19,666 bases of DNA from a virus. Numbering within the stretch: the first letter of the stretch is position 1; each line of letters opens with the position of its first letter. Both the position numbers and the translations under genes were made by a program. This document shows positions 3,104 through 19,666 of this stretch, in pieces. The stretch lies in UHGV virus genome UHGV-0176920; one strand, given 5' to 3'. Under the pieces are notes generated by a model. That model was not told where the DNA came from and ran no database searches. It saw only the letters and a program-made list of their open reading frames with translations.

Positions 3104-3405
3104 TGTCCTGTTCTCGTTCAGTTGTATTACTGAATAACGCCTTAAAAATCGCCGTTATGAAAAATGGCGATTTATCTCTTATTCAACTTGGTCTTGATAA
3201 AGAAAAACGCGAAATAACTGAGTCTGTTATCGCGATTTATCAGAACGAATTAAATCTCCTGTCTGATGTGGTCAATTTACTTGTTAAACGCGCTGTATTT
3301 CACAAGCAAATCTCCTCCGTGGATGAACTGACGAAATTAACGACAGAAATTGCCAGCTATTGCGCTGATGAATTTAAAAAACTTAACGACAAAAGGAGCT
3401 GGTAA
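3100..3405 (+). CDS. Hypothetical early protein (P2 orf81 position), 101 aa
   Basis: ORF with GGGGAGG upstream; start overlaps the previous stop; synteny. Confidence 0.65.
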
Positions 3406-3629: not shown

Positions 3630-3907
3630 GTATTCGTATTGAAATTGGCGAGCGTTATGTCGTCACAAATGACCGTTTTCAGTTCATTTTGCAGGAGAGA
3701 AAGACCGCTGAAACCGGGAAGAATGCCGGTAAAGAGTGGCTGGATGTTGTCGGCTATTACCCCAAATTAAACCAGCTCGTTTCCGGTCTGATCCATCACG
3801 ATATTTTGAGCGGTAACGCTGTCTCTTTTGAGGCGCTGAGCTCTCAGGTTGAGCAGCTCGGTCAGCAGTGTCTGACTGCGTTTCTCTGTGCGGGGAAATC
3901 TAAATGA
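3626..3907 (+). CDS. Hypothetical early protein (P2 orf83 position), 93 aa
   Basis: ORF start overlaps the orf82 stop; its stop overlaps ATG 3904 of the next gene (ATGA). Confidence 0.65.
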   Translation: MSIRIEIGERYVVTNDRFQFILQERKTAETGKNAGKEWLDVVGYYPKLNQLVSGLIHHDILSGNAVSFEALSSQVEQLGQQCLTAFLCAGKSK

Positions 3908-4912
3908 TAGTTGATACCCGCTGCCGAGCTGAAAGCTCTATCAATATTATTTCTGTTTCTGGCGGAAAGGATAGCCTTGCTCAATGGCTTGTTGGTATTG
4001 AAAGCGGTGTGCATTTTTTTGCCGGTTTTTGCAGACACCGGGCATGAGCATCCGCAGACAATGGAGTATCTCGATTATCTGGAGAACCGACTCGGGCCGG
4101 TTAAACGGGTTAAAGCTGACTTCTCCCGACAGATTGAAGGTAAGCGCAAGTTTATTGCTGAGAAATGGCCTGTTTCTCTGGTTGAAGAGTGCGGAATGTC
4201 TCCGGGGGAAGCGGCAGAGCGCATCAATTGTGCGCTGGAAATTCTCAAGCCTACTGGTATCCCATTTCTTGATTTGTGCATGTGGAAAGGGCGATTTCCT
4301 TCCACTAAAGCCAGATTTTGCACTTTTGACCTTAAACATGAGCCAGTACGTACTCAGGTCGTGTTACCTGCGCTTAATGAGTTTGATGAGGTAATTAGCT
4401 GGCAGGGGATTCGCGCTCAGGAGTCTCCTGCGCGCGCGGGTCTGCCTGCCTGGGAAGAGGATGCGGACAATACGCCCGGGCTCCATGTATACCGTCCTAT
4501 TCTGAACTGGACGCATGAGGAGGTATTTGCATTTGCAAGACGTCATGGAATTAAACCTAATCCGTTATACCAGCAGGGATGCAGTCGTGTCGGTTGTATG
4601 CCCTGCATCCACGCCAGAAAGTCTGAATTAGCTGAAATTTTTAGTCGCTGGCCGGAAGAGGTTAAGCGTGTTGCGGAATGGGAGCGACTTGTCGCCGCAT
4701 GCTCCAGACGCGGAAATTCTACTTTCTTCCCGTCAACTCATGACCCGCGTCGTGCGGAACGCCGCATTGATATTATTACTGTCGATGCTTACGGAATTGA
4801 GTCTTATCGTGACTGGGCGATGACCACGCGTGGCGGGGCACAGTTTGATTTGCTGGCTTCGGTGAATGATAAGTCAGTTTGCAGTAGTGTCTATGCCGGT
4901 GTATGTGAATGA
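3904..4912 (+). CDS. PAPS reductase / PP-loop ATP-pyrophosphatase family protein (DndC-like), apparently frameshifted near 4014-4030
   Basis: Frame starting at ATG 3904 encodes MIVDTRCRAESSINIISVSGGKDSLAQWLVGIESGVHFF with the PP-loop SGGKDS at 3958-3975, then stops at TGA 4045-4047. The +1 frame (ORF-track 3911..4912) carries the rest of the fold: FADTGHEHPQT, WQGIRAQES..R, LNWTHEEVF, GCSRVGCMPC. Stop overlaps the A start (ATGA). Confidence 0.7.
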
Positions 4913-7194
4913 GTCATTCTTTCCAGGAGCAATACACCTGCGTACCTCCGTCAGCATTTGCTGCAGGCACCGGTAAGGCGTTTACCGGTGCTTATGCATG
5001 GAACGCGCCACGCGAGGCCGTCGGGCGCGAAAGACCCCTTACACGTGACGAGATGCGTCAGGTGCAAGGTGTTTTATCCACGATTAACCGCCTGCCTTAC
5101 TTTTTGCGCTCGCTGTTTACTTCACGCTATGACTACATCCGGCGCAATAAAAGCCCGGTGCACGGGTTTTATTTCCTCACATCTACTTTTCAGCGTCGTT
5201 TATGGCCGCGCATTGAGCGCGTGAATCAGCGCCATGAAATGAACACCGACGCGTCGTTGCTATTTCTGGCAGAGCGTGACCACTATGCGCGCCTGCCTGG
5301 AATGAATGACAAGGAGCTGAAAAAGTTTGCCGCCCGTATCTCATCGCAGCTTTTCATGATGTATGAGGAACTCTGCGATGCATGGGTTGATGCACATGGC
5401 GAAAAAGAATCGCTGTTTACGGATGAGGCGCAGACTCACCTGTATGGTCATGTTGCTGGCGCTGCACGTGCTTTCAATATTTCCCCGCTCTACTGGAAAA
5501 AATACCGTAAAGGACAGATAACCACGAGGCAGGCATATTCTGCCATTGCCCGTCTGTTTAACGATGAGTGGTGGACTCATCAGCTTAAAGGCCAGCGTAT
5601 GCGCTGGCATGAGGCGTTACTGATTGCTGTCGGGGAGGTCAATAAAGACCGTTCTCCTTATGCCAGTAAACATGCCATTCGTGATGTGCGTGCGCGCCGC
5701 CAGGCAAATCTGGAGTTTCTTAAATCGTGTGACCTTGAAAACAGGGAAACCGGCGAACGCATCGACCTTATCAGTAAGGTGATGGGCAGTATTTCTAATC
5801 CTGAAATTCGCCGGATGGAGCTGATGAACACCATTGCCGGTATTGAGCGTTACGCCGCCGCAGAGGGTGATGTGGGGATGTTTATCACGCTGACCGCGCC
5901 GTCAAAGTATCACCCGACACGTCAGGTCGGAAAAGGCGAAAGTAAAACCGTTCAGCTTAATCACGGCTGGAACGATGAGGCATTTAATCCAAAGGATGCG
6001 CAGCGTTATCTCTGCCGTATCTGGAGCCTGATGCGCACGGCATTCAAGGATAATGATTTACAGGTCTACGGTTTGCGAGTCGTCGAGCCACACCACGACG
6101 GAACGCCGCACTGGCATATGATGCTTTTTTGTAATCCACGCCAGCGTAACCAGATTATTGAAATCATGCGTCGCTACGCGCTCAAAGAGGATGGCGACGA
6201 AAGAGGAGCTGCGCGAAACCGTTTTCAGGCAAAACACCTTAACCGGGGCGGTGCTGCAGGGTATATCGCGAAATACATCTCAAAAAACATCGATGGCTAT
6301 GCACTGGATGGTCAGCTCGATAACGATACCGGCAGGCCGCTGAAAGACACTGCCGCGGCTGTTACCGCATGGGCGTCAACGTGGCGCATTCCGCAATTTA
6401 AAACGGTTGGCCTGCCGACAATGGGGGCTTACCGTGAACTACGCAAATTGCCTCGCGGCGTCAGCATTGCTGATGAGTTTGACGAGCGCGTCGAGGCTGC
6501 ACGCGCCGCTGCAGACAGTGGTGATTTTGCGTTGTATATCAGCGCGCAGGGCGGGGCAAATGTCCCGCGCGATTGTCAGACTGTCAGGGTCGCCCGTAGC
6601 CCGTCGGATGACGTTAACGAGTACGAGGAAGAAGTCGAGAGAGTGGTCGGCATTTACGCGCCGCATCTCGGCGCGCGTCATATTCATATCACCAGAACGA
6701 CGGACTGGCGCATTGTTCCGAAAGTGCCGGTCGTTGAGCCTTTGACTTTAAAAAGCGGCATCGCCGCGCCTCGGAGTCCTGTCAATAACTGTGGAAAGCT
6801 CACCGGTGGTGATACTTCGTTACCGGCTCCCACACCTTCTGAGCACGCCGCAGCAGTGCTTAATCTGGTAGATGACGGTGTTATCGAATGGAATGACCCG
6901 GAGGTCGTGAGGGCGCTCAGAGGTGCATTAAAACACGGCCTGAGAAGACCAAACCGTCAGCAAAGAAACGGAAGCCCGTTAAAACCGCATGAAATAGCGC
7001 CATCGGCCAGACTGACCCGGTCTGAACGATTGCAAATCACCCGTATCCGCGTTGACCTTGCTCAGAACGGTATCAGGCCGCAGCGATGGGAGCTTGAGGC
7101 GCTGGCGCGTGGCGCGACCGTAAATTATGACGGGAAAAAATTCACGTATCCGGTCGCTGATGAGTGGTCGGGATTCTGGCATCAATTTGAGTAA
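4909..7194 (+). CDS. A: Replication initiation protein A (rolling-circle nickase, P2 A-like), 761 aa
   Basis: 761-aa ORF of P2 A length at the P2 A position; contains a paired-tyrosine-type segment (…GYIAKYISKNIDGY…) and HxH-like segment (…DGTPHWHMMLF…) typical of rolling-circle initiators. Confidence 0.95.
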   Translation: MSHSFQEQYTCVPPSAFAAGTGKAFTGAYAWNAPREAVGRERPLTRDEMRQVQGVLSTINRLPYFLRSLFTSRYDYIRRNKSPVHGFYFLTSTFQRRLWPRIERVNQRHEMNTDASLLFLAERDHYARLPGMNDKELKKFAARISSQLFMMYEELCDAWVDAHGEKESLFTDEAQTHLYGHVAGAARAFNISPLYWKKYRKGQITTRQAYSAIARLFNDEWWTHQLKGQRMRWHEALLIAVGEVNKDRSPYASKHAIRDVRARRQANLEFLKSCDLENRETGERIDLISKVMGSISNPEIRRMELMNTIAGIERYAAAEGDVGMFITLTAPSKYHPTRQVGKGESKTVQLNHGWNDEAFNPKDAQRYLCRIWSLMRTAFKDNDLQVYGLRVVEPHHDGTPHWHMMLFCNPRQRNQIIEIMRRYALKEDGDERGAARNRFQAKHLNRGGAAGYIAKYISKNIDGYALDGQLDNDTGRPLKDTAAAVTAWASTWRIPQFKTVGLPTMGAYRELRKLPRGVSIADEFDERVEAARAAADSGDFALYISAQGGANVPRDCQTVRVARSPSDDVNEYEEEVERVVGIYAPHLGARHIHITRTTDWRIVPKVPVVEPLTLKSGIAAPRSPVNNCGKLTGGDTSLPAPTPSEHAAAVLNLVDDGVIEWNDPEVVRALRGALKHGLRRPNRQQRNGSPLKPHEIAPSARLTRSERLQITRIRVDLAQNGIRPQRWELEALARGATVNYDGKKFTYPVADEWSGFWHQFE

Positions 7195-7320
7195 GGATCT
7201 CATCTATACAGTATAAGTAGTTTTGACTGTAATTGATTGTTTTTTATATGGTTGCATGCATTAAATCTACGTCAATATCATTATGTTATAATGCATTACT
7301 TAAAAATGTTGGAGATAAAA

Positions 7321-7512
7321 ATGTTAAAGCCTGCAGATGTTGTTTGTTTGAAAAGCGGTGGATTTAAAATGACTGTATCTGACTCTACTGAAACTCATGC
7401 TAAATGTATTTGGCATGATAAAGAAGGAGTTTTGCACGAGGAGTCATTCTCCATTGATTTACTGGAAATAGCAGAGAGTAAAAGTGGTATGCTTTGTCGT
7501 CCACGTAAGTGA
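7321..7512 (+). CDS. Small DUF2158 (YodC-like) family protein, 63 aa (P2 orf91 position)
   Basis: ATG 7321 preceded by GGAG (7311-7314), inside ORF-track ORF 7237..7512 which begins with TTG. Motif LKSGGFKMTV resembles the DUF2158 signature as I recall it. AT-rich. Confidence 0.55.
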   Translation: MLKPADVVCLKSGGFKMTVSDSTETHAKCIWHDKEGVLHEESFSIDLLEIAESKSGMLCRPRK

Positions 7513-7539
7513 ATCATAATAAAATTCACGGGGGAAAGT

Positions 7540-8220
7540 ATGAAACAATACAGCGAATTAGAAAACAATGTTAAGAGATTCATTGTTGAGCATGAAAAAG
7601 GGATTTCTATTGATGATATTCATCATAAGTTCCGGATGAAGGATGGTCAGAATCGCAAGATGGCAGATTATCTTATTGATAATAAAAAGATAATTTTGGA
7701 GATGAAAAGTCTTTTTTCTGACAGGGTCAAGAATGTCAATGATAAACTGAATGAGTTGGTTAAAACTGATAGTTGGCTTGCAAAAAACTGGCATGGTGCT
7801 ATTCATTTAGAAGAGTTGATAAAAAGACACCCAGACTCAAAGCGATTTAGAAATGATATAATGAACTTTGCTTATGAAAATATTAAAACAAAGATAGTTA
7901 AGGAAGCTAATAAGCAAATAAATGCAACAAAGGATGTTTTGGATTTAAATGACTCGATTGGCGGGTTGATTTTGTTAAATGATAATGTCTTTTCACATGA
8001 GTCTAATTATTTGTCAGATGAAATATTATATTTGCTAGGCACAAAGAGATATTCGAGTGTTGAGTTTGTGGTTTATATTGCAAAATTGATTGATAAACAG
8101 GTTGATGTTTGTGTGCTACTTGACAGTCAATCTAAAAATAAAAATTATATTGAATGGTATATGAATAATGTTTTTTTATTGAACTGGGCGTCTTTTAATA
8201 AATATGCAATAAAGATGTAG
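7540..8220 (+). CDS. Hypothetical protein, 226 aa, cargo gene at the P2 tin position; function unknown
   Basis: Clean ORF with GGGGGAAAG-type RBS before ATG 7540, 27 nt downstream of the small ORF (likely co-transcribed). Strongly AT-rich, Lys/Asn-rich protein with no Walker or catalytic signature I can recognise. Confidence 0.7.
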   Translation: MKQYSELENNVKRFIVEHEKGISIDDIHHKFRMKDGQNRKMADYLIDNKKIILEMKSLFSDRVKNVNDKLNELVKTDSWLAKNWHGAIHLEELIKRHPDSKRFRNDIMNFAYENIKTKIVKEANKQINATKDVLDLNDSIGGLILLNDNVFSHESNYLSDEILYLLGTKRYSSVEFVVYIAKLIDKQVDVCVLLDSQSKNKNYIEWYMNNVFLLNWASFNKYAIKM

Positions 8221-8539
8221 TGGTGTGGATGGATATGAAATGAGTCAACCAAGATGCACCTTGGTCAGTAATCTCATGTGAGATACCACATATAACACCA
8301 AAAGTGTCAGGTTGATGGCCATTGTTCACCGTTTACAGCAGATTATGGTCAACGAAAATCTGACGCCTGACGAGCTGGTCGGGTGTGCCGAAATAGTCTG
8401 GGATAATTACGGGCGGTTTAACTATATCGGTCAGTCCAGAGTTGCGCCACCACCACGCAGACGATAGAGAACGCCGCCAGTCGTGAAACTTGTTTTCAGG
8501 CTGGCGGAGTTGAACAACGAGCGAAGTGAGGCGTTAGCA

Positions 8540-9481
8540 TTAAGTTAATTTTAATGAATGGTACTCTATCGAGCTGATTGTAGATGCGATATATTTACGA
8601 TCATTTACAGAGAGTATTGCCGCTAGTAGACGACATACCAGAGCCTGCATTTGTAGCAATATATCGCTACCATATTGACAATCATTGATACTAGAGAAAC
8701 CAAGCGGTTGCCCATTAAAAATGGCTTCATGAAAATTATCATTGCGTATAACTGAAACATTACATTCATCTGTTGCCCATGACGGGATTTTTACACCGTA
8801 ATTTTCGCACATCCAATATACTCTATTTTGATGAGATGGTTTTTTCTCTTTAATGACTTTATCCCTTTCATCCCATGCTATAGCAAAACAGCAATCAAGA
8901 GCCATATAAAGATACTGGAATTTCTCAAAGGAAAGGTATAGTGGGTTATGTGACAGGAATAGGGAGTGTATCACCGCAGCTATTCTTTTAATGGAGCGAT
9001 CATCTTTTTGTTTGTCTTTTATATAGTTAAGTGCTAGCTCTATTACTTCTTTTTCAGAGCATCCAACGAGAATAAAGTCGGTTAACTTAGTGGGCTTGAT
9101 AGTGGTTGCATCAAGAAAACCAGCGTCAGTGGTTGTCAATCTTATACCCTTGAAAAAAGAGAGGCACCACACAACAAAGTTGAGAGTTTCTAACGAGGAT
9201 GTGTTTTTTAATTTTAGTGTGTGCGTTTTGGGCATGCCGAATACTCGGTAACTATAAGGCATTGTGCATGTGTCACCATTAAGGTTATATACCTTTCGAT
9301 TCCCAGGGTATATCCAACCATTAACAACGTTTTTATCATTGTTAATACGTTCCACGTTCTCAATAAGACCGGGTAAAGTACGCAAAGAAAATTGTTCAGT
9401 CTCAATGTTAACTTCTACTGGATAGTATCCAAACTCCGAAATAATCTCATTTGGTTGCTGTTCGTCAACTTCACCTTGCAT
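8540..9481 (-). CDS. Hypothetical protein, 313 aa, cargo gene adjacent to cos; function unknown
   Basis: Minus-strand ORF with GGAG 7 nt upstream of ATG 9481, convergent with the 226-aa gene. AT-rich. Contains one R-N-D-N-F-H string (codons at 8729-8746), a weak Rx4H match to a HEPN-type motif. Confidence 0.7.
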   Translation of the reverse strand: MQGEVDEQQPNEIISEFGYYPVEVNIETEQFSLRTLPGLIENVERINNDKNVVNGWIYPGNRKVYNLNGDTCTMPYSYRVFGMPKTHTLKLKNTSSLETLNFVVWCLSFFKGIRLTTTDAGFLDATTIKPTKLTDFILVGCSEKEVIELALNYIKDKQKDDRSIKRIAAVIHSLFLSHNPLYLSFEKFQYLYMALDCCFAIAWDERDKVIKEKKPSHQNRVYWMCENYGVKIPSWATDECNVSVIRNDNFHEAIFNGQPLGFSSINDCQYGSDILLQMQALVCRLLAAILSVNDRKYIASTISSIEYHSLKLT

Positions 9482-9719
9482 AACTTTCTCCGTTCAAAAA
9501 CAGGCACGATAATTCTCGTAAGCCTATCATGTTCGCAAAGTATCCATACCTGTGGATTTTGTAAATTTAAGTTGATTTGTCATTAAATAAGCCGTTGCAT
9601 GCAACAAGTGAATGTTTTTGCATGCGTCGGGGATGTCCGTTCAGGCTGCGTGCGGTCAGGACTGGTGCGGATCCATAGTATCTATGCAACTGCATTAAAA
9701 CCGCCCCATGAAGCGGGCG

Positions 9720-9738
9720 GGCGAGGCGGGGAAAGCAC
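9720..9738. other. cos site candidate (P2-type 19-nt cohesive end sequence)
   Basis: ggcgaggcggggaaagcac read directly; it matches the P2/P4 cohesive-end sequence as I recall it and sits where cos is expected, between the tin/old-equivalent locus and Q. Confidence 0.5.
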
Positions 9739-9872
9739 TGCGCGCTGGCGGTGGTGCTGATTTTATTTTTTCAGCGTCTCAGCGCGTCGTGATGGCATTT
9801 AGTCGGCCTGCTGGGGCGTTGGTGTGTCTGCGGGGTGTTTTGTGCGGTGGTGAGGGCGTGATGACGGGATGT

Positions 9873-9894
9873 AAAAAAGCCGCCCGCAGGCGGC
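9873..9894 (-). terminator. Rho-independent terminator candidate downstream of Q (minus strand)
   Basis: Plus strand aaaaaa-GCCGCC-cgca-GGCGGC; on the minus strand this is a GC stem-loop followed by TTTTTT, starting 6 nt after the Q stop. Confidence 0.5.
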
Positions 9895-9899
9895 GATGT

Positions 9900-10934
9900 T
9901 CAGCCGTTGTCAGTGTCAAGTGAGTAGTTTTTAAAGCGGATGACCTCCTGACCGAGCCAGTCGTTTATCTCGCGGATCCTGTCCTGTAACGGGATAAGCT
10001 CATTGCGGACAAAGACCTTTGCCACTTTCTCAATATCACCCAGCGACCCGACGTTCTCCGGCTTGCCACCCATCAACTGAAAGGGGATGCGGTGCGCGTC
10101 CAGCAGGTCAGCGGCGCTGGCTTTTTTGATATTAAAAAAATCGTCCTTCGTCGCCACTTCACTGAGGGGGATAATTTTAATGCCGTCGGCTTTCCCCTGT
10201 GGGGCATAGAGAAACAGATTTTTAAAGTTATTGCGGCCTTTCGACTTCACCATGTTTTCGCGAAGCATTTCGATATCGTTGCGATCCTGCACGGCATCGG
10301 TGACGTACATGATGTATCCAGCATGTGCGCCATTTTCGTAATACTTGCGGCGGAACAGCGTGGCCGACTCATTCAGCCAGGCAGAGTTAAGGGCGCTGAG
10401 ATATTCCGGCAGGCCGTACAGCTCCTGATTAATATCCGGCTCCAGCAGGTGAAACACGGAGCCGGACGCGAAGGCTGTCGGCTCGTTGAAGGACGGCACC
10501 CACCAGTAAACATCCTCCTCCACGCCACGGCGGGTATATTTTGCCGGTGAGGTTTCCAGCCTGATAACCTTACCGGTGGTGCTGTAACGCTTTTCCAGAA
10601 ACGCATTACCGAACACCAGAAAATCCAGCACAAAGCGGCTGAAATCCTGCTGGGAAAGCCACGGGTGCGGAATAAACGTTGAAGCCAGAATATTACGTTT
10701 GACGTAAATCGGTGAGCTGTGATGTACGGCAGCACGCAGGCTTTTTGCCAGACCGGTAAAGCTGACCGGTGGCTCATACCATCTGCCGTTACTGATGCAC
10801 TCGACGTAATCCAGAATGTCACGGCGGTCGAGTACCGGCACCGGCTCACCAAAGGTGAATGCCTCCATTTTCGGGGCGCTGGCGGTCATTGTTTTCACCG
10901 CAGGTTGCGGTGTTTTCCCTTTTTTCTTGCTCAT
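9900..10934 (-). CDS. Q: Portal protein (P2 gpQ-like), 344 aa
   Basis: 344-aa ORF (P2 Q length) starting MSKKKGKTPQPAVKTMTASAPKMEAFTFGEP, directly downstream of and start-overlapping the terminase gene on the minus strand. Confidence 0.95.
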   Translation of the reverse strand: MSKKKGKTPQPAVKTMTASAPKMEAFTFGEPVPVLDRRDILDYVECISNGRWYEPPVSFTGLAKSLRAAVHHSSPIYVKRNILASTFIPHPWLSQQDFSRFVLDFLVFGNAFLEKRYSTTGKVIRLETSPAKYTRRGVEEDVYWWVPSFNEPTAFASGSVFHLLEPDINQELYGLPEYLSALNSAWLNESATLFRRKYYENGAHAGYIMYVTDAVQDRNDIEMLRENMVKSKGRNNFKNLFLYAPQGKADGIKIIPLSEVATKDDFFNIKKASAADLLDAHRIPFQLMGGKPENVGSLGDIEKVAKVFVRNELIPLQDRIREINDWLGQEVIRFKNYSLDTDNG

Positions 10935-12706
10935 CAGTAAAACTCCAGAATGGTGGATGTCAGCGGGGTGCTGATACCGGCGGTGAGTGGCTCATTTAAC
11001 AGGGCGTGCATGGTCGCCCAGGCGAGGTCGGCGTGGCTGGCTTCCTCGCTGCGACTGGCCTCATAGGTGGCGCTGCGTCCGCTGCTGGTCATGGTCTTGC
11101 GGATAGCCATAAACGAGCTGGTGATGTCGGTGGCGCTGACGTCATATTCCAGACAGCCACGGCGGATAACGTCTTTTGCCTTGAGCACCATTGCGGTTTT
11201 CATTTCCGGTGTGTAGCGGATATCGCGCGCGGCGGGATAGAACGAGCGCACGAGCTGGAACACGCCGACACCGAGGCCGGTGGCATCAATACCGATGTAT
11301 TCGACGTTATATTTTTCGGTGAGTTTGCGGATGGATTCAGCCTGGGTGGCAAAGTCCATGCCTTTCCACTGGTGACGCTCAAGTATCCTGAATTTGCCAC
11401 CGGCCACCACCGGCGGTGCCAGCACCACGCATCCGGCGCTGTCGCCACGGTGTGACGGGTCGTAACCAATCCATACCGGGCGGGAGCCGAACGGATTGGC
11501 GGCAAACGGTGCATAGTCTTCCCATTCTTCCAGCGTGTCGACCATGCAGCGTTGCAGCTCCTCGAACGGGAACACCGATGCCTTGTCGTCAACAAATTCA
11601 CACATGAACAGGTTTTTAAAATCGTCGGCGCTGTTTTCGCGTTTGAGCTGCTCAATGTCGAACAGTGTGCAGCCACCTTTCAGGGCGTCCTCAATGGTGA
11701 CAATCTGCCGCCACTGGCCGTCCGCACAGAGAAGCCCACCGGCAAGGGCGTTATGACTGACGTCGATTTCCACACGTTCGGCGGCGCTGGCGCGTCCCCG
11801 GTTGAACAGTTCACCCGACCAGAACGGGTAGGCGTCGTGCGCCAGTGTGGACGGGGTGGAGAAATAGGTCGAGCGCAGGTGACTCTGTGAGGCCATACCT
11901 GATGCCACCTTACGCAGAACCTGAAAATTTGGGATCCAGAAAATCTCGTCGACGTACAGGTCACCGTTATGGCTCTGTGCGGTGTTGGAGTTGGTGCCGA
12001 GAAAAATCAGTTTTGCGCCGTTATTGCCCAGGACAATCGGGTCACCGGTCAGGTCAACGTCAACCAGACGGGCAAAGGCGATGATGTATTCACGGAACAC
12101 ATACGCCTGCGTTTTACTGGCCGACAGAAAAATCTGGTTATGACCGGTTTTCAGGGCGCGCAGCAGCGCCTCGCGGGAAAAATAAAATGTCGCGCCAATC
12201 TGGCGGGATTTCAGGATATCGCGGATGCGGTGCTCAAGCCCGGCGCGATACCAGTGCAACTGATAGTCGAAAGACTGCTCAAAGAAAATCTGCTCCAGCT
12301 TTTCGATAGCCTCGTCACTGAAAAAATTCTTTTTCGGTTTGCGCCGCCCGCCTTTGTTGCGGTTAGCGACGTTCGGATTAAGGTCTGCCTCGTTGCCGGT
12401 CTGGCTGTAGCGGTTTACCCGTGCCAGTCGTTCAATCTGGCGTCCGAGCAGGTCAATTTCCTTGAAGTCACCGCCGGTTTTCTGCGGTTTGATAATGAGC
12501 TGGGTCAGCCGCGCTTCCAGACTCATTTCGACACGGCTGATGGGGGCAACGCTGTCCCAGCCGTCGCGCTGTTTCCAGCTCTGCACCGTCGGGCGTTTCA
12601 TCTGCAACATGGCGGCAATCTGCGGCACGGAAAACCCCTGCCAGTACAGCAGCGCCGCCTGACGACGCGGGTCGTGTAAAAGAGTGGTGTCTGTGGTGAT
12701 GGTCAT
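10934..12706 (-). CDS. P: Terminase large (ATPase) subunit (P2 gpP-like), 590 aa
   Basis: ATG at 12706 (GAGGT upstream) chosen inside ORF-track ORF 10934..12736, giving the 590-aa P2 P length with N-terminus MTITTDTTLLHDPRRQAALLYWQGF. Divergent from O. Confidence 0.95.
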   Translation of the reverse strand: MTITTDTTLLHDPRRQAALLYWQGFSVPQIAAMLQMKRPTVQSWKQRDGWDSVAPISRVEMSLEARLTQLIIKPQKTGGDFKEIDLLGRQIERLARVNRYSQTGNEADLNPNVANRNKGGRRKPKKNFFSDEAIEKLEQIFFEQSFDYQLHWYRAGLEHRIRDILKSRQIGATFYFSREALLRALKTGHNQIFLSASKTQAYVFREYIIAFARLVDVDLTGDPIVLGNNGAKLIFLGTNSNTAQSHNGDLYVDEIFWIPNFQVLRKVASGMASQSHLRSTYFSTPSTLAHDAYPFWSGELFNRGRASAAERVEIDVSHNALAGGLLCADGQWRQIVTIEDALKGGCTLFDIEQLKRENSADDFKNLFMCEFVDDKASVFPFEELQRCMVDTLEEWEDYAPFAANPFGSRPVWIGYDPSHRGDSAGCVVLAPPVVAGGKFRILERHQWKGMDFATQAESIRKLTEKYNVEYIGIDATGLGVGVFQLVRSFYPAARDIRYTPEMKTAMVLKAKDVIRRGCLEYDVSATDITSSFMAIRKTMTSSGRSATYEASRSEEASHADLAWATMHALLNEPLTAGISTPLTSTILEFY

Positions 12707-12879
12707 GAATACCTCGCCGTGATGAATACACGGCAAGGCTACTGAGTCGCGCCCCGCGATTCGCTAAGGTGCTGTTGTGTCAGTGATAAGCCATCCGGGA
12801 CTGATGGCGGAGGATGCGCATCGTCGGGAAACTGATGCCGACATGTGACTCCTCTAATCACTATTCAGGACTCCTGACA

Positions 12880-13734
12880 ATGGCAAAAAAAGTCTCAAAA
12901 TTCTTTCGTATCGGCGTTGAGGGTGACACCTGTGACGGGCGTGTCATCAGTGCGCAGGATATTCAGGAAATGGCCGAAACCTTTGACCCGCGAGTCTATG
13001 GTTGCCGCATTAACCTGGAACATCTGCGCGGCATCCTGCCTGACGGTATTTTTAAGCGTTATGGCGATGTGGTCGAACTGAAGGCCGAAAAGATTGACGA
13101 TGATTCGGCGCTGAAAGGCAAATGGGCGCTGTTTGCGAAAATCACCCCGACCGATGACCTTATCGCGATGAACAAGGCCGCGCAGAAGGTCTACACCTCA
13201 ATGGAAATTCAGCCGAACTTTGCCAACACCGGCAAATGTTATCTGGTGGGGCTGGCCGTCACCGATGACCCGGCAAGCCTCGGCACGGAATACCTGGAAT
13301 TCTGCCGCACGGCAAAACACAACCCTCTGAACCGCTTCAAATTAAGCCCTGAAAACCTGATTTCAGTGGCAACGCCCGTTGAGCTGGAATTTGAAGACCT
13401 GCCTGAAACCGTGTTCACCGCCCTGACCGAAAAGGTGAAATCCATTTTTGGCCGCAAACAGGCCAGCGATGACGCCCGTCTGAATGACGTGCATGAAGCG
13501 GTGACCGCTGTTGCTGAACATGTGCAGGAAAAACTGAGCGCCACTGAGCAGCGCCTCGCTGAGATGGAAACCGCCTTTTCCGCACTTAAGCAGGCGGTGA
13601 CTGACAGGGCGGATGAAACCAGCCAGGCATTCACCCGCCTGAAAAACAGTCTCGACCACACCGAAAGTCTGACCCAGCAGCGCCGCAGCAAGGCCACCGG
13701 TGGTGGCGGTGACGGCCTGATGACGAACTGCTGA
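12880..13734 (+). CDS. O: Capsid scaffolding protein (P2 gpO-like), 284 aa
   Basis: ATG 12880 chosen inside ORF-track ORF 12814..13734, giving 284 aa starting MAKKVSKFFRIGVEGDTCDGRV as in P2 O. Confidence 0.9.
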   Translation: MAKKVSKFFRIGVEGDTCDGRVISAQDIQEMAETFDPRVYGCRINLEHLRGILPDGIFKRYGDVVELKAEKIDDDSALKGKWALFAKITPTDDLIAMNKAAQKVYTSMEIQPNFANTGKCYLVGLAVTDDPASLGTEYLEFCRTAKHNPLNRFKLSPENLISVATPVELEFEDLPETVFTALTEKVKSIFGRKQASDDARLNDVHEAVTAVAEHVQEKLSATEQRLAEMETAFSALKQAVTDRADETSQAFTRLKNSLDHTESLTQQRRSKATGGGGDGLMTNC

Positions 13735-13792
13735 CCGGCGTCAGTCAGTCCGGGAAAACCTTCACGATTAACCCTTAATTTCAGGAAAAACT

Positions 13793-14866
13793 ATGCGCCA
13801 GGAAACCCGCTTTAAATTTAATGCTTACCTGTCCCGTGTTGCCGAACTGAACGGCATTGATGCCGGTGATGTGTCGAAAAAATTCACTGTTGAACCGTCG
13901 GTCACCCAGACCCTGATGAACACCATGCAGGAGTCCTCTGACTTTCTGACCCGCATCAACATTGTGCCGGTCAGCGAAATGAAAGGGGAAAAAATTGGTA
14001 TTGGTGTCACCGGCTCCATCGCCAGCACCACCGACACCGCCGGTGGCACCGAGCGTCAGCCGAAGGACTTCTCGAAGCTGGCGTCAAACAAGTACGAATG
14101 CGACCAGATTAACTTCGATTTTTATATCCGCTACAAAACGCTGGACCTGTGGGCGCGTTATCAGGATTTCCAGCTCCGTATCCGTAACGCCATTATCAAA
14201 CGCCAGTCCCTTGATTTCATCATGGCCGGTTTTAACGGCGTGAAGCGTGCCGAAACCTCTGACCGCAGCAGCAATCCGATGCTGCAGGATGTGGCGGTCG
14301 GCTGGCTGCAGAAATACCGCAATGAAGCCCCGGCTCGCGTGATGAGCAAGGTCACTGACGAGGAAGGCAGCACCACCTCTGAGGTCATCCGCGTGGGTAA
14401 GGGCGGTGATTATGCCAGCCTCGATGCACTGGTGATGGATGCGACCAACAACCTGATTGAGCCGTGGTATCAGGAAGACCCTGACCTTGTGGTGATTGTG
14501 GGGCGTCAGCTACTGGCGGACAAGTATTTCCCCATCGTCAACAGGGAGCAGGATAACAGCGAAATGCTGGCTGCTGACGTCATCATCAGCCAGAAACGCA
14601 TCGGTAACCTGCCAGCGGTACGCGTCCCGTACTTCCCGGCGGATGCGATGCTCATCACGAAGCTGGAAAACCTGTCTATCTACTACATGGATGACAGCCA
14701 TCGCCGCGTGATTGTGGAAAACCCGAAACTCGACCGCGTGGAGAACTACGAGTCAATGAACATTGATTACGTGGTGGAAGACTACGCCGCCGGTTGTCTG
14801 GTGGAAAAAATCAAGGTCGGTGATTTCTCCACACCGGCTAAGGCGACCGCAGAGCCGGGAGCGTAA
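13793..14866 (+). CDS. N: Major capsid protein (P2 gpN-like), 357 aa
   Basis: 357-aa ORF following O, length and position as P2 N. Confidence 0.95.
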   Translation: MRQETRFKFNAYLSRVAELNGIDAGDVSKKFTVEPSVTQTLMNTMQESSDFLTRINIVPVSEMKGEKIGIGVTGSIASTTDTAGGTERQPKDFSKLASNKYECDQINFDFYIRYKTLDLWARYQDFQLRIRNAIIKRQSLDFIMAGFNGVKRAETSDRSSNPMLQDVAVGWLQKYRNEAPARVMSKVTDEEGSTTSEVIRVGKGGDYASLDALVMDATNNLIEPWYQEDPDLVVIVGRQLLADKYFPIVNREQDNSEMLAADVIISQKRIGNLPAVRVPYFPADAMLITKLENLSIYYMDDSHRRVIVENPKLDRVENYESMNIDYVVEDYAAGCLVEKIKVGDFSTPAKATAEPGA

Positions 14867-14869
14867 CCG

Positions 14870-15613
14870 ATGACGAGTCCCGCACAGCGCCACATGATGC
14901 GGGTCTCGGCAGCGATGACCGCGCAGCGGGAAGCCGCCCCGCTGCGACATGCAACTGTCTATGAGCAGATGCTGGTCAAGCTGGCCGCAGACCAGCGCAC
15001 ACTGAAAGCGATTTATTCAAAAGAGCTTAAGGCCGCGAAAAAGCGCGAACTGCTGCCGTTCTGGTTGCCGTGGGTGAACGGTGTGCTGGAGCAGGGCAAA
15101 GGTGCACAGGATGACATTCTGATGACGGTCATGCTGTGGCGTCTGGATACCGGCGATATTGCCGGTGCGCTGGAGATTGCCCGTTATGCCCTGAAGTACG
15201 GTCTGACCATGCCGGGTAAACACCGCCGCACCCCGCCGTACATGTTCACCGAGGAGGTCGCACTCGCGGCCATGCGTGCCCACGCTGCCGGTGAATCTGT
15301 GGATATCCGCCTGCTGACGGAGACCCTTGAACTGACCGCCACGGCTGACATGCCTGATGAAGTGCGCGCAAAGCTGCACAAAATCACCGGTCTGTTTCTG
15401 CGTGACGCTGGTGATGCCGCCGGTGCGCTGGCTCACCTGCAACGTGCGACACAGCTCGACTGTCAGGCAGGCGTCAAAAAAGAGATTGAACGACTGGAGC
15501 GGGAGCTGAAACCGAAGCCGGAGCCGCAGCCCAAAGCGGTCACCCGCGCCCCGCGTAAGACCCGGAGCGTGACACCGGCAAAACGTGGACGCCCGAAAAA
15601 GAAAGCCAGTTAA
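14870..15613 (+). CDS. M: Terminase small (endonuclease) subunit (P2 gpM-like), 247 aa
   Basis: 247-aa ORF following N with a basic Lys/Arg/Pro-rich C-terminus; P2 M length and position. Confidence 0.9.
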   Translation: MTSPAQRHMMRVSAAMTAQREAAPLRHATVYEQMLVKLAADQRTLKAIYSKELKAAKKRELLPFWLPWVNGVLEQGKGAQDDILMTVMLWRLDTGDIAGALEIARYALKYGLTMPGKHRRTPPYMFTEEVALAAMRAHAAGESVDIRLLTETLELTATADMPDEVRAKLHKITGLFLRDAGDAAGALAHLQRATQLDCQAGVKKEIERLERELKPKPEPQPKAVTRAPRKTRSVTPAKRGRPKKKAS

Positions 15614-15712
15614 CAACCGAATGCGCCCCGCGCCAGGGCGGCACGCCGGTCAGTGAGGGTGAATCACCTGACACTGCACCGGCGTCCACCGCCCGACTTT
15701 TCAGAGGTAGTC

Positions 15713-16222
15713 ATGATGACGCTGATTATTCCGCGAAAGGAGGCTCCCGTGTCCGGTGAGGGTACGGTGGTCATCCCGCAACCGGCAGGCGACGAGCCGG
15801 TGATTAAAAACACGTTCTTTTTTCCCGATATCGACCCGAAGCGCGTCCGGGAACGTATGCGCCTTGAGCAGACCGTCGCCCCCGCCCGTCTGCGTGAGGC
15901 CATCAAGTCAGGCATGGCGGAGACGAATGCGGAGCTGTACGAGTACCGCGAACAGAAAATTGCCGCCGGTTTTACGCGTCTGGCGGACGTTCCGGCGGAC
16001 GACATCGACGGTGAAAGCATCAAAGTTTTTTACTACGAGCGCGCCGTGTGTGCGATGGCGACCGCGTCGCTTTATGAGCGTTATCGCGGCGTGGATGCCA
16101 GTGCGAAAGGCGACAAGAAGGCCGACAGCATTGACAGCACCATTGATGAACTGTGGCGGGATATGCGCTGGGCGGTGGCGCGTATCCAGGACAAGCCGCG
16201 CTGCATCGTGAGTCAAATCTGA
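15713..16222 (+). CDS. L: Head completion / stabilisation protein (P2 gpL-like), 169 aa
   Basis: ATG 15713 chosen inside ORF-track ORF 15653..16222, giving 169 aa starting MMTLIIPRKEAPVSGEG; stop overlaps the X start. Confidence 0.85.
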   Translation: MMTLIIPRKEAPVSGEGTVVIPQPAGDEPVIKNTFFFPDIDPKRVRERMRLEQTVAPARLREAIKSGMAETNAELYEYREQKIAAGFTRLADVPADDIDGESIKVFYYERAVCAMATASLYERYRGVDASAKGDKKADSIDSTIDELWRDMRWAVARIQDKPRCIVSQI

Positions 16223-16425
16223 TGAAGACCTTTGCGCTACAGGGTGACACGCTCGACGCCATTTGTGTCCGGTATTACGGGCGCACTGAGGGCGTGGTTG
16301 AGACCGTGCTCGCCGCAAATCCGGGACTGGCTGAACTGGGTGCGGTGCTGCCACACGGCACCGCCGTCGAACTGCCCGACGTTCAGACCGCGCCCGTGGC
16401 TGAAACTGTCAATCTGTGGGAGTAA
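16222..16425 (+). CDS. X: Tail protein X (P2 gpX-like), 67 aa
   Basis: ATG 16222 inside ORF-track ORF 16153..16425 gives 67 aa starting MKTFALQGDTLDAICVRYYGR; P2 X length and position. Confidence 0.8.
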   Translation: MKTFALQGDTLDAICVRYYGRTEGVVETVLAANPGLAELGAVLPHGTAVELPDVQTAPVAETVNLWE

Positions 16426-16428
16426 CGC

Positions 16429-16710
16429 ATGACAGCAGAAGAAAAAAGCGTCCTGTCGCTTTTCATGATTGGGGTGCTGATTGTTGTCGGCAAGGTGCTT
16501 GCCGGTGGTGAACCCATCACCCCGCGTCTGTTTATCGGGCGCATGTTGCTCGGCGGTTTTGTCTCGATGGTTGCCGGTGTTGTTCTGGTGCAGTTTCCTG
16601 ACCTGTCACTGCCTGCGGTGTGCGGCATCGGTTCCATGCTGGGTATCGCCGGTTATCAGGTGATTGAGATTGCCATTCAGCGCCGCTTTAAGGGCAGGGG
16701 GAAACCGTAA
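16429..16710 (+). CDS. Y: Holin (P2 gpY-like), 93 aa
   Basis: 93-aa protein with two or three hydrophobic transmembrane stretches and a charged C-terminus, immediately upstream of the endolysin. Confidence 0.85.
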   Translation: MTAEEKSVLSLFMIGVLIVVGKVLAGGEPITPRLFIGRMLLGGFVSMVAGVVLVQFPDLSLPAVCGIGSMLGIAGYQVIEIAIQRRFKGRGKP

Positions 16711-17207
16711 TGCCGGTAATTAACACGCATCAGAATATCGCCGCCTTTCTCGACATGCTGGCCGTGTCCGAAGGGACGGCGAATCATCCGCTGACGAAAA
16801 ACCGGGGCTATGACGTGATAGTCACCGGACTGGACGGAAAGCCGGAAATTTTCACCGACTACAGTGACCACCCGTTCGCGCATGGCCGACCGGCGAAGGT
16901 GTTTAACCGTCGCGGTGAAAAATCCACGGCCTCCGGTCGCTATCAGCAGCTTTACCTGTTCTGGCCGCACTACCGCAAACAGCTTGCCCTGCCGGATTTC
17001 AGTCCGTTGTCACAGGACAGGCTCGCCATTCAGTTGATCCGCGAACGCGGTGCACTGGATGACATCCGGGCGGGACGCATTGAGCGCGCCATTTCACGCT
17101 GTCGCAATATCTGGGCGTCCCTGCCGGGTGCCGGTTACGGTCAGCGTGAGCATTCACTGGAAAAACTGGTCACCGTCTGGCGTACCGCCGGCGGCGTACC
17201 GGCTTAA
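16710..17207 (+). CDS. K: Endolysin (P2 gpK-like lysozyme/muramidase), 165 aa
   Basis: 165-aa ORF start-coupled to the holin; N-terminal …DMLAVSEGT… segment typical of phage lysozymes; P2 K length. Confidence 0.9.
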   Translation: MPVINTHQNIAAFLDMLAVSEGTANHPLTKNRGYDVIVTGLDGKPEIFTDYSDHPFAHGRPAKVFNRRGEKSTASGRYQQLYLFWPHYRKQLALPDFSPLSQDRLAIQLIRERGALDDIRAGRIERAISRCRNIWASLPGAGYGQREHSLEKLVTVWRTAGGVPA

Positions 17208-17221
17208 ACGGAGTAAACACC

Positions 17222-17647
17222 ATGAAGAAATTATCCCTTTCACTGATGCTGAACGTGTCGCTGGCGCTGATGCTGGCACTGTCCCTGATTTACCCGCAGA
17301 GCGTGGCCGTCAGTTTTGTCGCCACCTGGGCGATTCTGGCGACGGTTATCTGTGTGGTTGCCGGTGGTGTCGGCGTGTATGCCACGGAGTATGTGCTGGA
17401 ACGCTACGGGCGGGAGCTGCCGCCGGAATCGCTGGCCGTGAAGATTGTCACGTCGCTGTTTTTGCAGCCGGTGCCGTGGCGCAGACGGGCGGCGGCTCTG
17501 GTGGTGATGGTGGCGACGTTTATCTCGCTGGTCGCTGCCGGGTGGATTTTTACTGCGCTGATTTACCTCGTGGCGTCGGTGTTCTTCCGGCTGATACGTA
17601 CGGCCTGCCGTCAGCGTTTTGAGGGGCGGGAACCATGTCAAAGCTGA
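17222..17647 (+). CDS. lysA: Lysis accessory membrane protein LysA (P2-like), 141 aa
   Basis: 141-aa ORF with multiple hydrophobic helices after K; P2 lysA length and position. Confidence 0.8.
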   Translation: MKKLSLSLMLNVSLALMLALSLIYPQSVAVSFVATWAILATVICVVAGGVGVYATEYVLERYGRELPPESLAVKIVTSLFLQPVPWRRRAAALVVMVATFISLVAAGWIFTALIYLVASVFFRLIRTACRQRFEGREPCQS

Positions 17648-18060
17648 TGATTGTACTGGTTGTGTTGTTATCGCTGGCGGTGGCGGGGCTGTTTCTGGTG
17701 AAACATAAAAATGCCAGCCTGCGCGCCTCGCTGGACAGGGCGAACAACGTCGCCAGCGGGCAGCAGACGACTATCACCATGCTGAAAAATCAGCTTCATG
17801 TTGCCCTCACCAGAGCAGACAAAAACGAGCTGGCGCAGGTGGTACTGCGTCAGGAACTGGAGAACGCCGCGAAGCGTGAAGCACAGCGCGAGAAAACCAT
17901 CACGAGGTTACTCAATGAAAACGAAGATTTTCGCCGCTGGTACGGCGCTGACCTGCCTGATGTTGTGCGCCGGTTGCACCAGCGTCCGGCCTGCACCGAC
18001 GCCAGTGATTGTCGCCAACGCCTGCCCGAAAGTGAGCCTTTGCCCGATGCCGGGCAGTGA
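17635..18060 (+). CDS. lysB: LysB, Rz-like inner-membrane spanin component, 141 aa
   Basis: N-terminal transmembrane helix (MSKLMIVLVVLLSLAVAGLFLV) followed by a coiled-coil-like charged region; P2 lysB length. Confidence 0.8.
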   Translation: MSKLMIVLVVLLSLAVAGLFLVKHKNASLRASLDRANNVASGQQTTITMLKNQLHVALTRADKNELAQVVLRQELENAAKREAQREKTITRLLNENEDFRRWYGADLPDVVRRLHQRPACTDASDCRQRLPESEPLPDAGQ

Positions 18061-18205
18061 CCCGCAGACGAACGGCGATTTAAGTGCTGATATCCGGCAG
18101 CTTGAGAACGCGCTGGCACGCTGTGCCAGCCAGGTAAAAATGATTAAACACTGTCAGGACGAAAACGATGCTCAAACCCGACAGCCTGCGCAGGGCGCTG
18201 ACTGA
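17915..18205 (+). CDS. lysC: LysC, Rz1-like outer-membrane lipoprotein spanin, 96 aa, embedded out of frame in lysB and overlapping R
   Basis: ATG 17915 inside ORF-track ORF 17798..18205 gives MKTKIFAAGTALTCLMLCAGCTS… with a lipobox-like LCAGC and a proline-rich mature part; P2 lysC length. Confidence 0.7.
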   Translation: MKTKIFAAGTALTCLMLCAGCTSVRPAPTPVIVANACPKVSLCPMPGSDPQTNGDLSADIRQLENALARCASQVKMIKHCQDENDAQTRQPAQGAD

Positions 18206-18635
18206 CGCCGTCACGGTGCTGAAAACCAGTCCCGAGATGCTGCGGATATTCGTGGATAACGGGAGTATTGCCTCCACACTGGCGACGTCTATGTCATTCG
18301 AAAAGCGTTACACGCTCAATGTGATTGTGACCGACTTTACCGGTGATTTTGACCTGCTCATTGTGCCGGTGCTGGCGTGGCTGCGGGAAAATCAGCCAGA
18401 CATCATGACCACCGACGAAGGCCAGAAAAAGGGCTTCACGTTTTATGCAGACATCAACAATGACAGCAGCTTTGATATCAGCATCAGCCTGATGCTGACC
18501 GAGCGCACGCTGGTCAGTGAGGTGGAAGGCGCGCTACATGTGAAGAATATCCCGGAACCTCCGCCGCCGGAGCCGGTTACCCGCCCGATGGAGCTGTATA
18601 TCAATGGCGAACTGGTGAGCAAGTGGGATGAATGA
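18168..18635 (+). CDS. R: Tail completion protein R (P2 gpR-like), 155 aa
   Basis: 155-aa ORF at the P2 R position; stop overlaps the S start. Confidence 0.85.
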   Translation: MLKPDSLRRALTDAVTVLKTSPEMLRIFVDNGSIASTLATSMSFEKRYTLNVIVTDFTGDFDLLIVPVLAWLRENQPDIMTTDEGQKKGFTFYADINNDSSFDISISLMLTERTLVSEVEGALHVKNIPEPPPPEPVTRPMELYINGELVSKWDE

Positions 18636-19080
18636 GTTTAAGCGTTTTGAAGACCGGCTGACCGGACTGACTGAATCGCTGTCACCGTCAGGGCGTCGGC
18701 GACTGAGCGCCGAACTGGCGAAACGTCTGCGTCAGAGTCAGCAGCGTCGGGTGATGGCACAGAAAGCCCCGGACGGCACACCCTACGTGCCACGCCAGCA
18801 GCAGAGCGCCAGAAAAAAGACCGGTCGTGTTAAGCGAAAAATGTTTGCGAAACTTATCACCAGTCGTTTTTTGCATATCCGCGCCAGCCCGGAACAGGCA
18901 TCAATGGAGTTTTACGGCGGGAAGTCGCCGAAAATTGCCAGTGTGCATCAGTTCGGTCTGTCGGAAGAAACCCGGAAAGACGGTAAGAAAACTGATTATC
19001 CGGCGCGTCCTCTGCTCGGCTTTACCGGTGAGGATGTGCAGATGATTGAAGAGATTATCCTGGCTCACCTTGAGCGTTAG
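18628..19080 (+). CDS. S: Tail completion protein S (P2 gpS-like), 150 aa
   Basis: 150-aa ORF following R; P2 S length and position. Confidence 0.85.
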   Translation: MNEFKRFEDRLTGLTESLSPSGRRRLSAELAKRLRQSQQRRVMAQKAPDGTPYVPRQQQSARKKTGRVKRKMFAKLITSRFLHIRASPEQASMEFYGGKSPKIASVHQFGLSEETRKDGKKTDYPARPLLGFTGEDVQMIEEIILAHLER

Positions 19081-19110
19081 TTTTATCCAGGCAGAGGCTG
19101 ATGCGCAATT

Positions 19111-19145
19111 AAACATTGAGCGGCCGTGCTGGTCGCTCAATGTTT
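19111..19145. terminator. Perfect 12-bp inverted repeat (AAACATTGAGCG / CGCTCAATGTTT) between convergent S and the minus-strand cargo ORF; possible bidirectional terminator
   Basis: Arms at 19111-19122 and 19134-19145 with an 11-nt loop, read directly. No canonical U-tract on either side, hence low confidence. Confidence 0.35.
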
Positions 19146-19151
19146 AGAGGT

Positions 19152-19616
19152 TTATGAGTGGTTTTTATTTGATGCTTTGTATTCTAAAACCTTCTTATTG
19201 GCGTAAAGGAATTTTGTGTATGACAGGAATATAAATAGACCTGAAATGAAATAGATTAGGGATATTATTAATAATGTTTTTCTGTGGCTGTTATTATCTT
19301 TAATCTCCTGACTTAACCATTCGGAGTCCTCCTCGTTTAGCTGTAAGAGCTTATTGCAGGCGATTGCAGGAAGTGTGTCTGTTACAAAAGTGTTCTGCAG
19401 TCTCTTGCAATCGGCAATGCTAAAAGCTTTATAGAACTTATCTGTTTTATTGTCGGAGAACAAAAGAACCTTGTCATTATAAACATGGTACATCATATTT
19501 TTATATGGTATGGCTATGGCATCCTCTACTATGGCAGATTGCTCGTTGTGTATGCAACATGCGAAGATAATATAAAGAATTCCGGCCAGGTGCGTATTTT
19601 CATGAAAGGAGATCAC
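19152..19616 (-). CDS. Hypothetical membrane-anchored protein, 154 aa, cargo at the S-V variable locus (P2 orf30 position)
   Basis: Minus-strand AT-rich ORF with a C-terminal hydrophobic helix (TLLIISLIYFISGLFIFLSY). The ORF begins with GTG directly after an in-frame stop, so the start is uncertain; the next in-frame ATG would give ~114 aa. Confidence 0.55.
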   Translation of the reverse strand: MISFHENTHLAGILYIIFACCIHNEQSAIVEDAIAIPYKNMMYHVYNDKVLLFSDNKTDKFYKAFSIADCKRLQNTFVTDTLPAIACNKLLQLNEEDSEWLSQEIKDNNSHRKTLLIISLIYFISGLFIFLSYTKFLYANKKVLEYKASNKNHS

Positions 19617-19666
19617 TCAATAACTTCCATCGAGATCGGGTAATAACATTTGAACAGATCGCTGAA

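Follow-up and report, generated by a model that had tools for sequence, protein, structure and literature searches.

Phage P2 carries orf30 (AAD03281.1), a 786-bp minus-strand gene encoding a 261-aa protein (AF063097, 9439-10224, complement), which is flanked by a terminator and by the pV activator site; AF063097 labels it "nonessential". P2-like phages have three classical variable loci, one of them at orf30, whose product is listed as "unknown" (PMC3091744); the literature that we searched on orf30 reports no function or phenotype, and nowhere treats the slot between genes S and V as a defence hotspot. Other accessory genes of P2, namely old, tin and Z/fun, are exclusion genes (PMC9122126; preprint 10.1101/2024.10.15.618418). 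We compared this locus with the corresponding end of a 19,666-nucleotide stretch of DNA (UHGV virus genome UHGV-0176920; “the window” hereafter denotes this whole stretch), at which a second described element, the insertion sequence (IS) ISEc12 (istA WP_001298859.1, istB WP_001016257.1), is also represented, by only the first 76 bp of its 2,581 bp.

Beyond gene S, the GC content of the window drops from 54–58% to 35–39% past about 19100, in agreement with the AT-richness noticed in a preliminary description of this DNA. The AT-rich stretch contains a 154-codon open reading frame (ORF), which the same description had taken for a separate second cargo gene at the variable S-V locus where P2 carries orf30. 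The assignment to that locus was correct, since the P2 record shows orf30 in the same slot; the separate gene was not, since the sequence is orf30 itself. A megablast comparison of positions 18600-19666 with phage records recovered P2 (AF063097) at 92.8% nucleotide identity over query 1-990, with the feature "orf30: Orf30", and BLASTP aligned the ORF product to residues 117-261 only of P2 Orf30 (113/145 identical, 78%, E 3e-83). Window positions 1-19590 match at 100% a P2-like prophage found in E. coli 4/0, Ecol_656, 736, NR1441 and others, whose S-V slot holds an intact 786-bp minus-strand gene encoding the 261-aa protein WP_001599798.1. This intact parent of the fragment is present whole in hundreds of genomes. 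Compared base by base with the intact orf30 of E. coli 4/0 (L003), the window is identical through 19590 and shows its first mismatch at 19591.

The window copy resembles P2 orf30 in lying between S and V, on the same strand and after the same hairpin behind S; S ends at 19080, the minus-strand fragment follows, and V is reached past the IS in a contig described below (L009), P2 and E. coli 4/0 having the same layout. Unlike the complete gene of P2, it is without codons 1-116 and the upstream region, ISEc12 interrupting it at codon 116/117. Full length in the Orf30 family means about 261 aa and three hydrophobic helices; the window copy falls short of both and is what is left of a family member rather than a whole one. 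We regard it as nearly certain that ISEc12, on transposing into CCAGG, left behind 439 bp from the 3′ end of orf30 (residues 117-261 plus stop, 56% of the gene) as the feature seen here. The feature is an already known one, the orf30 gene of P2 split by a described IS, and the “154-aa protein” is a truncation artefact. Coordinates are collected in Table 1.

Table 1 Features at the S-V end of the window, in window coordinates
Feature	Position	Strand	Evidence or remark
Gene S, tail completion / virion morphogenesis, 150 aa	18628..19080	+	PF05069 Phage_tail_S, E 3.7e-43
Hairpin between convergent S and orf30	19110..19146	.	Inverted repeat 19110-19125 / 19131-19146
ORF of 154 codons	19152..19616	-	ORF list; GTG start
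orf30 3′ fragment	19152..19590	-	100% identical to intact E. coli 4/0 allele (WP_001599798.1)
TM3 (C-terminal) of Orf30, residues about 222-240	19218..19274	-	Kyte-Doolittle; model helix 202-260
Predicted periplasmic domain, Orf30 residues about 131-221	19275..19547	-	Positive-inside rule, AlphaFold2, conservation
Truncated TM2 of Orf30, LAGILYIIFACCI (ORF residues 10-22)	19551..19589	-	Kyte-Doolittle scan and alignment
CCAGG, 5-bp ISEc12 target site	19586..19590	.	Duplicated in L009; second copy beyond window
ISEc12 (IS21 family) left end, first 76 bp, starts TG	19591..19666	+	100% identical to annotated copies
Fortuitous GTG “start”	19614..19616	-	Inside IS end; in-frame TGA at 19617-19619 directly precedes

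The bases that follow the junction are the sequence preceding istA in copies annotated "IS21-like element ISEc12" at unrelated chromosomal and plasmid sites, and are identical in eight such copies (L002, L004, L005, L006, L019-L022), which projects the istA start to about 118 bp beyond the window end. Across 5,426 complete E. coli genomes, positions 19100-19666 were never matched past query position 491, that is, window position 19590. The last 76 bases, on their own, occurred at 5,066 places in 1,703 E. coli genomes (647 on plasmids, up to 14 places per genome) and thus behave as a repeat. In IMG/VR viral contigs the junction pattern had 0 matches. An exact look-up of the 154-aa product returned 13 independent public contigs (NCBI, ENA and other sources), of which at least 11, such as L010, end about 115 bp past the ORF, within the IS. 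We infer that contig ends inside the IS are short-read assembly breaks at a repeat and that the window broke likewise, 76 bp in. A start of the IS further to the left, prompted by GCCAGG before TGCG in several copies, was dismissed: those copies had been picked by a query that itself included GCCAGG, CCAGG is found again to the right of the IS as a duplication, and copies collected without this bias have other flanks.

A single contig, L009 (GCA_024391585.1, JAJMUE010000009.1), covers the entire insertion, matches window positions 19001-19666 with 0 mismatches and carries, in order, R, S, the 154-aa ORF, istA, istB, a 127-aa ORF, V, W, J, I and H. The promoter and neighbouring genes that the preliminary description had placed past the window end are replaced there by the IS, with istA (513 aa, rve) and istB (248 aa, IstB_IS21) both lying outside the window. 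The inserted element is 2,581 bp long, differs by 1 base from another ISEc12 copy (L004) and has the TG...CA ends, istA, istB and 5-bp target duplication of the IS as annotated, CCAGG standing on each side; 5-bp target duplications are present at further ISEc12 copies as well. The 127-aa ORF consists of Orf30 residues 1-116 followed by 11 IS-encoded residues, and in-silico excision of the IS with one CCAGG yields exactly the intact orf30 of E. coli 4/0. A clean 5-bp duplication together with precise restoration upon excision is the signature of real transposition.

ISEc12 (2,581 bp) transposed into CCAGG at orf30 codon 116/117, so that the 5′ part of the gene (116 codons, 348 bp) and the upstream region adjoining V lie across the IS, outside the window, and the remaining reading frame runs 26 bases into the left end of the IS, up to a chance GTG, giving an apparent 154-aa protein. 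The translation of the ORF reads VISFHENTH followed by LAGILYIIF...NKNHS: its residues 1-9 (VISFHENTH), together with the GTG, are read from the IS end, and its residues 10-154 are Orf30 residues 117-261. At the nucleotide level, 19152-19154 are the stop codon, 19155-19589 codons 117-261 and 19590 the last base of codon 116, the frame being open from the IS end through to the native orf30 stop. The ORF that had been described as a 154-aa protein does therefore exist, but identity with orf30 stops at 19590 and the protein is not a complete one; the doubt that had been expressed about its start codon was justified, the GTG lying in the IS end. Similarly, the C-terminal transmembrane helix that had been recognized is present (ORF residues 112-136, Kyte-Doolittle maximum 2.37), but it is not the single helix of the protein, since the truncation falls within the second of three parent helices, LAGILYIIFACCI being the remainder of a hydrophobic segment at residues 107-131 of intact Orf30. 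Pfam matches of the 154-aa ORF to DUF4889 and PMBR were weak and below threshold, and were dismissed.

By this insertion the fragment has lost its promoter, start codon, TM1, conserved cytoplasmic domain and part of TM2, and the IS puts 2.6 kb between it and the orf30-V intergenic region, the presumed location of the promoter. Because of these losses, and because the 167 bp separating istA from the GTG contain no sigma-70-like site on the ORF strand, we regard the window copy as a pseudogene remnant, which appears to be promoterless, silent and non-functional. That transcripts leaving the IS left end or arising within the fragment might still yield an active product, made up of half of TM2 plus the periplasmic domain and TM3 and keeping or gaining a membrane function, is in our estimate very improbable. 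The frame is open to the native stop, a weak GGAAG precedes the GTG by 7 nt, the periplasmic domain and TM3 are both whole, and one promoter-like match (9/12, at 19477..19449, minus strand) lies within the fragment, so that low-level transcription of a shorter predicted product from Met41/42 may occur. Yet the number of promoter-like sites in the region (5 vs 2.0 ± 1.4 in shuffled sequence) is within about two standard deviations and not clearly above chance, and most of these sites are on the other strand. IS21 has a known outward -35 element at its right end, not its left, which counts against expression driven from the adjoining end of the IS. Moreover, TM1 and the most conserved cytoplasmic motif of the family (Q61, G68, D76, G87) are missing, and only 13 hydrophobic residues of TM2 remain, which makes correct membrane insertion doubtful.

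Two further accounts deserve hardly any credence. A complete, independent 154-aa cargo protein, C-terminally anchored, starting at a codon of its own and driven from a promoter past the window end, would agree with the presence of a 154-codon ORF with a GTG and a C-terminal hydrophobic helix, and with the calling of this ORF by gene callers in the 13 public contigs; yet the ISEc12 end supplies the GTG and the first 9 codons, the remainder is residues 117-261 of a 261-aa protein, and istA/istB occupy the place of the promoter, which refutes such a gene. A chimeric assembly, in which the 19590/19591 junction is an artefact and orf30 is intact in the real genome, is just as hard to sustain: the window does end 76 bp into a repeat, resembling a short-read assembly break, and none of the 5,426 complete E. 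coli genomes searched has the junction, but the same junction stands in all 13 independent contigs, and L009 reads through the full IS to the remaining part of orf30, its duplication clean and the restoration on excision precise. Truncation by ISEc12 met no contradicting evidence in our analysis. Recognizing it removes a false lead, in that the small membrane-anchored “cargo protein” results from an IS insertion and a contig ending in a repeat, and gene callers have spread the same ORF into public databases. The exclusion or abortive-infection idea attached to the protein is almost certainly inapplicable to the disrupted window copy.

We then considered intact Orf30, of which the E. coli 4/0 and P2 proteins are 81% identical over all 261 residues. 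A Kyte-Doolittle scan gave three hydrophobic helices, at roughly residues 10-28, 113-129 and 222-240, and positively charged residues cluster between and after them (9 K/R in residues 29-60, 5 K/R in the C-tail). From this K/R distribution and the positive-inside rule, Orf30 is predicted to span the inner membrane three times, with its N-terminus out and its basic C-tail in the cytoplasm, residues about 29-108 being predicted as cytoplasmic and residues about 131-221 as periplasmic with a conserved Cys pair. An AlphaFold2 model built on a 25-sequence alignment (pLDDT 81.7, pTM 0.70) is helical in its cytoplasmic part and forms a four-stranded sheet with helices, holding Cys177 and Cys194, in its periplasmic part; it superseded an unusable model from four close homologues (pLDDT 48.7). 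A Foldseek search of the good model against PDB and BFVD returned nothing at E <= 0.001, with TM-scores mostly below 0.2, and a profile search of PDB sequences with Orf30 gave chance-level matches only. The intact gene appears to be transcribed separately, running towards S and away from V.

The Orf30 protein of E. coli 4/0 aligns over its full length with PHROG 2407 (E 2.6e-137), a family annotated "unknown function"; neither this protein nor P2 Orf30 had a match in Pfam, NCBIfam or PADLOC (PADLOC-DB 2.0), and PADLOC over 25 family members gave one chance-level match (E 0.0067). A word-indexed search of 5.8 billion proteins found just four clusters, at 77-95% identity, and word-indexed searching as a whole reached 4-6 close clusters. 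Distant relatives were reached only by an exhaustive profile (HMM) search of 1.84 billion representatives, and the 42 proteins that it recovered at E <= 1e-3 include about 25 full-length ones (239-271 aa, 18-33% identity). In the resulting 25-sequence alignment, G68, G87, C194 and I212 are invariant and Q61, D76, C177, N247 and K254 nearly so, the most conserved part of the family being the cytoplasmic motif around Q61, G68, D76 and G87. Named sources comprise Escherichia, Yersinia, Pectobacterium, Cronobacter, Serratia, Gibbsiella and an unclassified Enterobacteriaceae bacterium, and the proteins from these sources are all called "hypothetical"; several other members come from assemblies or metagenomes. 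The alignment, the confident model and the predicted topology together offer a sharper starting point for work on Orf30.

One member, P0024 (267 aa), scored 28.9 bits against Pfam DUF6216 (PF19723; gathering score 27.3) over profile positions 10-265 of 270. A second, P0034, remained below that cut-off at 24.3, and 5 of the 25 family members matched DUF6216 at E < 0.01. On the strength of the P0024 score and these weak matches, Orf30 is probably a divergent branch of this uncharacterised family, which is similar to it in length although the P2 and E. coli 4/0 proteins themselves give no match to the model. DUF6216 is without an assigned function, so that the link adds no mechanism, and a search of the DUF6216 literature found nothing relevant to Orf30.

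In five of the six genomic contexts examined, a distant member of the family lies between S and V in a P2-like prophage and is encoded on the other strand from these two genes, the members in this slot being from E. coli (L011), Yersinia (L012-14), Pectobacterium (L015), Cronobacter (L017) and a metagenome (L018). The sixth, from Serratia, adjoins an integrase, and the Pectobacterium and Cronobacter slots contain extra genes beside the family member. GC content is 33–35% in every family gene vs 52–59% in the flanks. Relative to the E. coli 4/0 prophage, the distant Orf30 proteins retain 23–33% identity, while the neighbouring genes hold 46–84% (R 65–79%, S 46–49%, V 71–84%, W 59–76%, J 77–82%). 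Thus, at least in these lineages, the slot keeps one fast-diverging family instead of swapping unrelated cargo. It differs in this from the A-Q and Z/fun hotspots of P2-like phages, which are highly swappable. Between P2 and E. coli 4/0, a single pair and hence indicative, orf30 has a dN/dS of 0.47 (dS 0.20), compared to 0.05-0.16 (dS 0.05-0.11) for five neighbouring genes; within the protein, identity in this one pair is lowest in TM2 (57%) and the periplasmic part (76%), and reaches 91% in the cytoplasmic domain.

A putative superinfection-exclusion or defence role for intact Orf30 is plausible. Tentatively, and with less than even confidence, we suggest that it may be a prophage-expressed envelope factor that blocks the entry of superinfecting phages or reacts to them, because the gene seems to be transcribed separately, with a late operon on either side, is AT-rich and non-essential, and encodes a membrane protein whose periplasmic domain evolves fastest, and because exclusion is the role of every other P2 accessory gene (old, tin, Z/fun). 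Orf30 shares with these P2 genes its AT-richness, dispensability and position at a variable locus. Inner-membrane superinfection-exclusion proteins are known from other phages, such as T4 Imm, P22 SieA and HK97 gp15, and Orf30 likewise would be a small inner-membrane protein (by prediction) of a temperate phage, apparently transcribed separately. Sequence and fold similarity to known exclusion or defence proteins is, by contrast, lacking in the Pfam, PADLOC and fold searches. The alternatives are a conversion factor for host physiology or virulence, or a modulator of the phage’s own lysis or entry. Broader still, and on the doubtful side, the family might represent an inner-membrane module that resides in P2-like phages across Enterobacterales, evolves fast and serves as a new kind of superinfection-exclusion or envelope-sensing defence factor. 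The preliminary description had named, as the finding that would count against its defence proposal, homology to a P2 orf30 product with an established non-defence role; the homology was found, but no role of any kind is established for that product, and for the intact gene the outcome thus speaks neither for nor against the proposal. If the exclusion or defence reading were true, the ISEc12-disrupted allele would be a natural knock-out.

Gene S, which R precedes, is collinear with P2 gpS and is the final gene of the late O operon. Thirty bases after it begins the hairpin, with 16-nt arms that are 94% complementary around a 5-nt loop and contain the perfect 12-bp inverted repeat reported earlier for this position (AAACATTGAGCG / CGCTCAATGTTT). 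A simple terminator consensus scan made no call at the hairpin, whose T-run is partly within the stem (TGTTTA then GAGGTTTAT). Searching the same region with Rfam and for tRNAs yielded sub-threshold hairpin look-alikes only. Its folding energies are −27.2 kcal/mol on the plus strand and −22.0 on the minus strand, both at z about −5, and 0 of 200 shuffles folded as well. The P2 record (AF063097) places a putative rho-independent terminator of the O operon at the homologous 9397-9433, and the hairpin is likely the equivalent of this terminator, acting in both directions.

In P2-like prophages of E. coli, Yersinia, Pectobacterium and Cronobacter and in one metagenome contig, the slot between genes S and V is filled, on the same strand, by relatives of Orf30 with only 23–33% identity, vs 46–84% identity for the flanking tail genes (see the table below). 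All of these genes have a GC content of ~34%, regardless of that of the host phage (52–59%). Along its entire length, one distant relative, P0024 (267 aa), exceeded the Pfam gathering score of DUF6216 (PF19723); weak matches to the same family were seen in others (P0034 and P0046). Orf30 itself gave no match to DUF6216; it is thus through these relatives that the P2 protein is probably tied to an uncharacterised Pfam family. Furthermore, the family is not strictly limited to the S–V slot, since one member on the chromosome of Serratia sp. D1N4 (L016 4001-4768) is not in any P2-like tail module; an integrase and an ASCH-domain gene lie nearby and ecotin adjoins. The slot also hosts extra cargo beside the Orf30-family gene in Pectobacterium (an ORF6N-domain protein and two small ORFs, L015 4800-6440) and in Cronobacter (a 180-aa protein and a DUF7480 protein, L017 2965-3899).

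The window ends 76 bp into the multi-copy element ISEc12 (19591-19666); of the public contigs in which this 154-aa ORF also occurs, most end 115 bp beyond it (L010 1-115). Such ends are a typical signature of short-read assembly breaking at a repeat, and a break of this kind would explain why the orf30 locus seemed open-ended. In L009, a public contig that spans the whole insertion, the remaining half of orf30 is called as an ORF of 127 aa. Because neither the native upstream sequence nor TM1 nor the conserved cytoplasmic domain has been lost from this half, it could, in contrast to the window fragment, still be expressed.

ISEc12 duplicates 5 bp of its target; across the target site in the window (19586-19590) and the copies in L004, L006-8, L009 and L019-L022, the target sequences are CCAGG, CCTGG, (G)CCAGC and CGTTT. 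CCAGG served as target at three independent sites, two of them picked by a query with GCCAGG, and this small, partly biased sample hints at a preference for CCWGG-like sites, the Dcm methylation motif.

Coordinates of Orf30-family genes and of ORFs in the A–Q interval
Feature	Location	Strand	Remark
Orf30 relative, E. coli P2-like prophage	L011 7001-7795		
Orf30 relative, Yersinia P2-like prophage	L012 7001-7771		
Orf30 relative, Pectobacterium P2-like prophage	L015 4001-4756		
Orf30 relative, Cronobacter P2-like prophage	L017 4001-4816		
Orf30 relative, metagenome contig	L018 4001-4789		
127-aa ORF, N-terminal half of disrupted orf30	L009 3094-3477		Orf30 residues 1-116 + 11 IS-encoded residues
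DUF2158 small protein	window 7237-7512	+	
226-aa ORF	window 7540-8220	+	
313-aa ORF	window 8540-9481	-	

The classical old/tin hotspot, flanked by gene A and the portal gene Q, contains the window's other AT-rich stretch (7237-9481, 32–41% GC); the 226-aa and 313-aa ORFs of this stretch had no Pfam or PADLOC match. At the position of the Z/fun hotspot, with the tail-fibre assembly gene on one side and the sheath gene on the other, two Yersinia P2-like prophages (L012 1166-2405 and L014 1161-2412) encode a Cupin_2 protein together with a PAS/GerE (LuxR-type) regulator.
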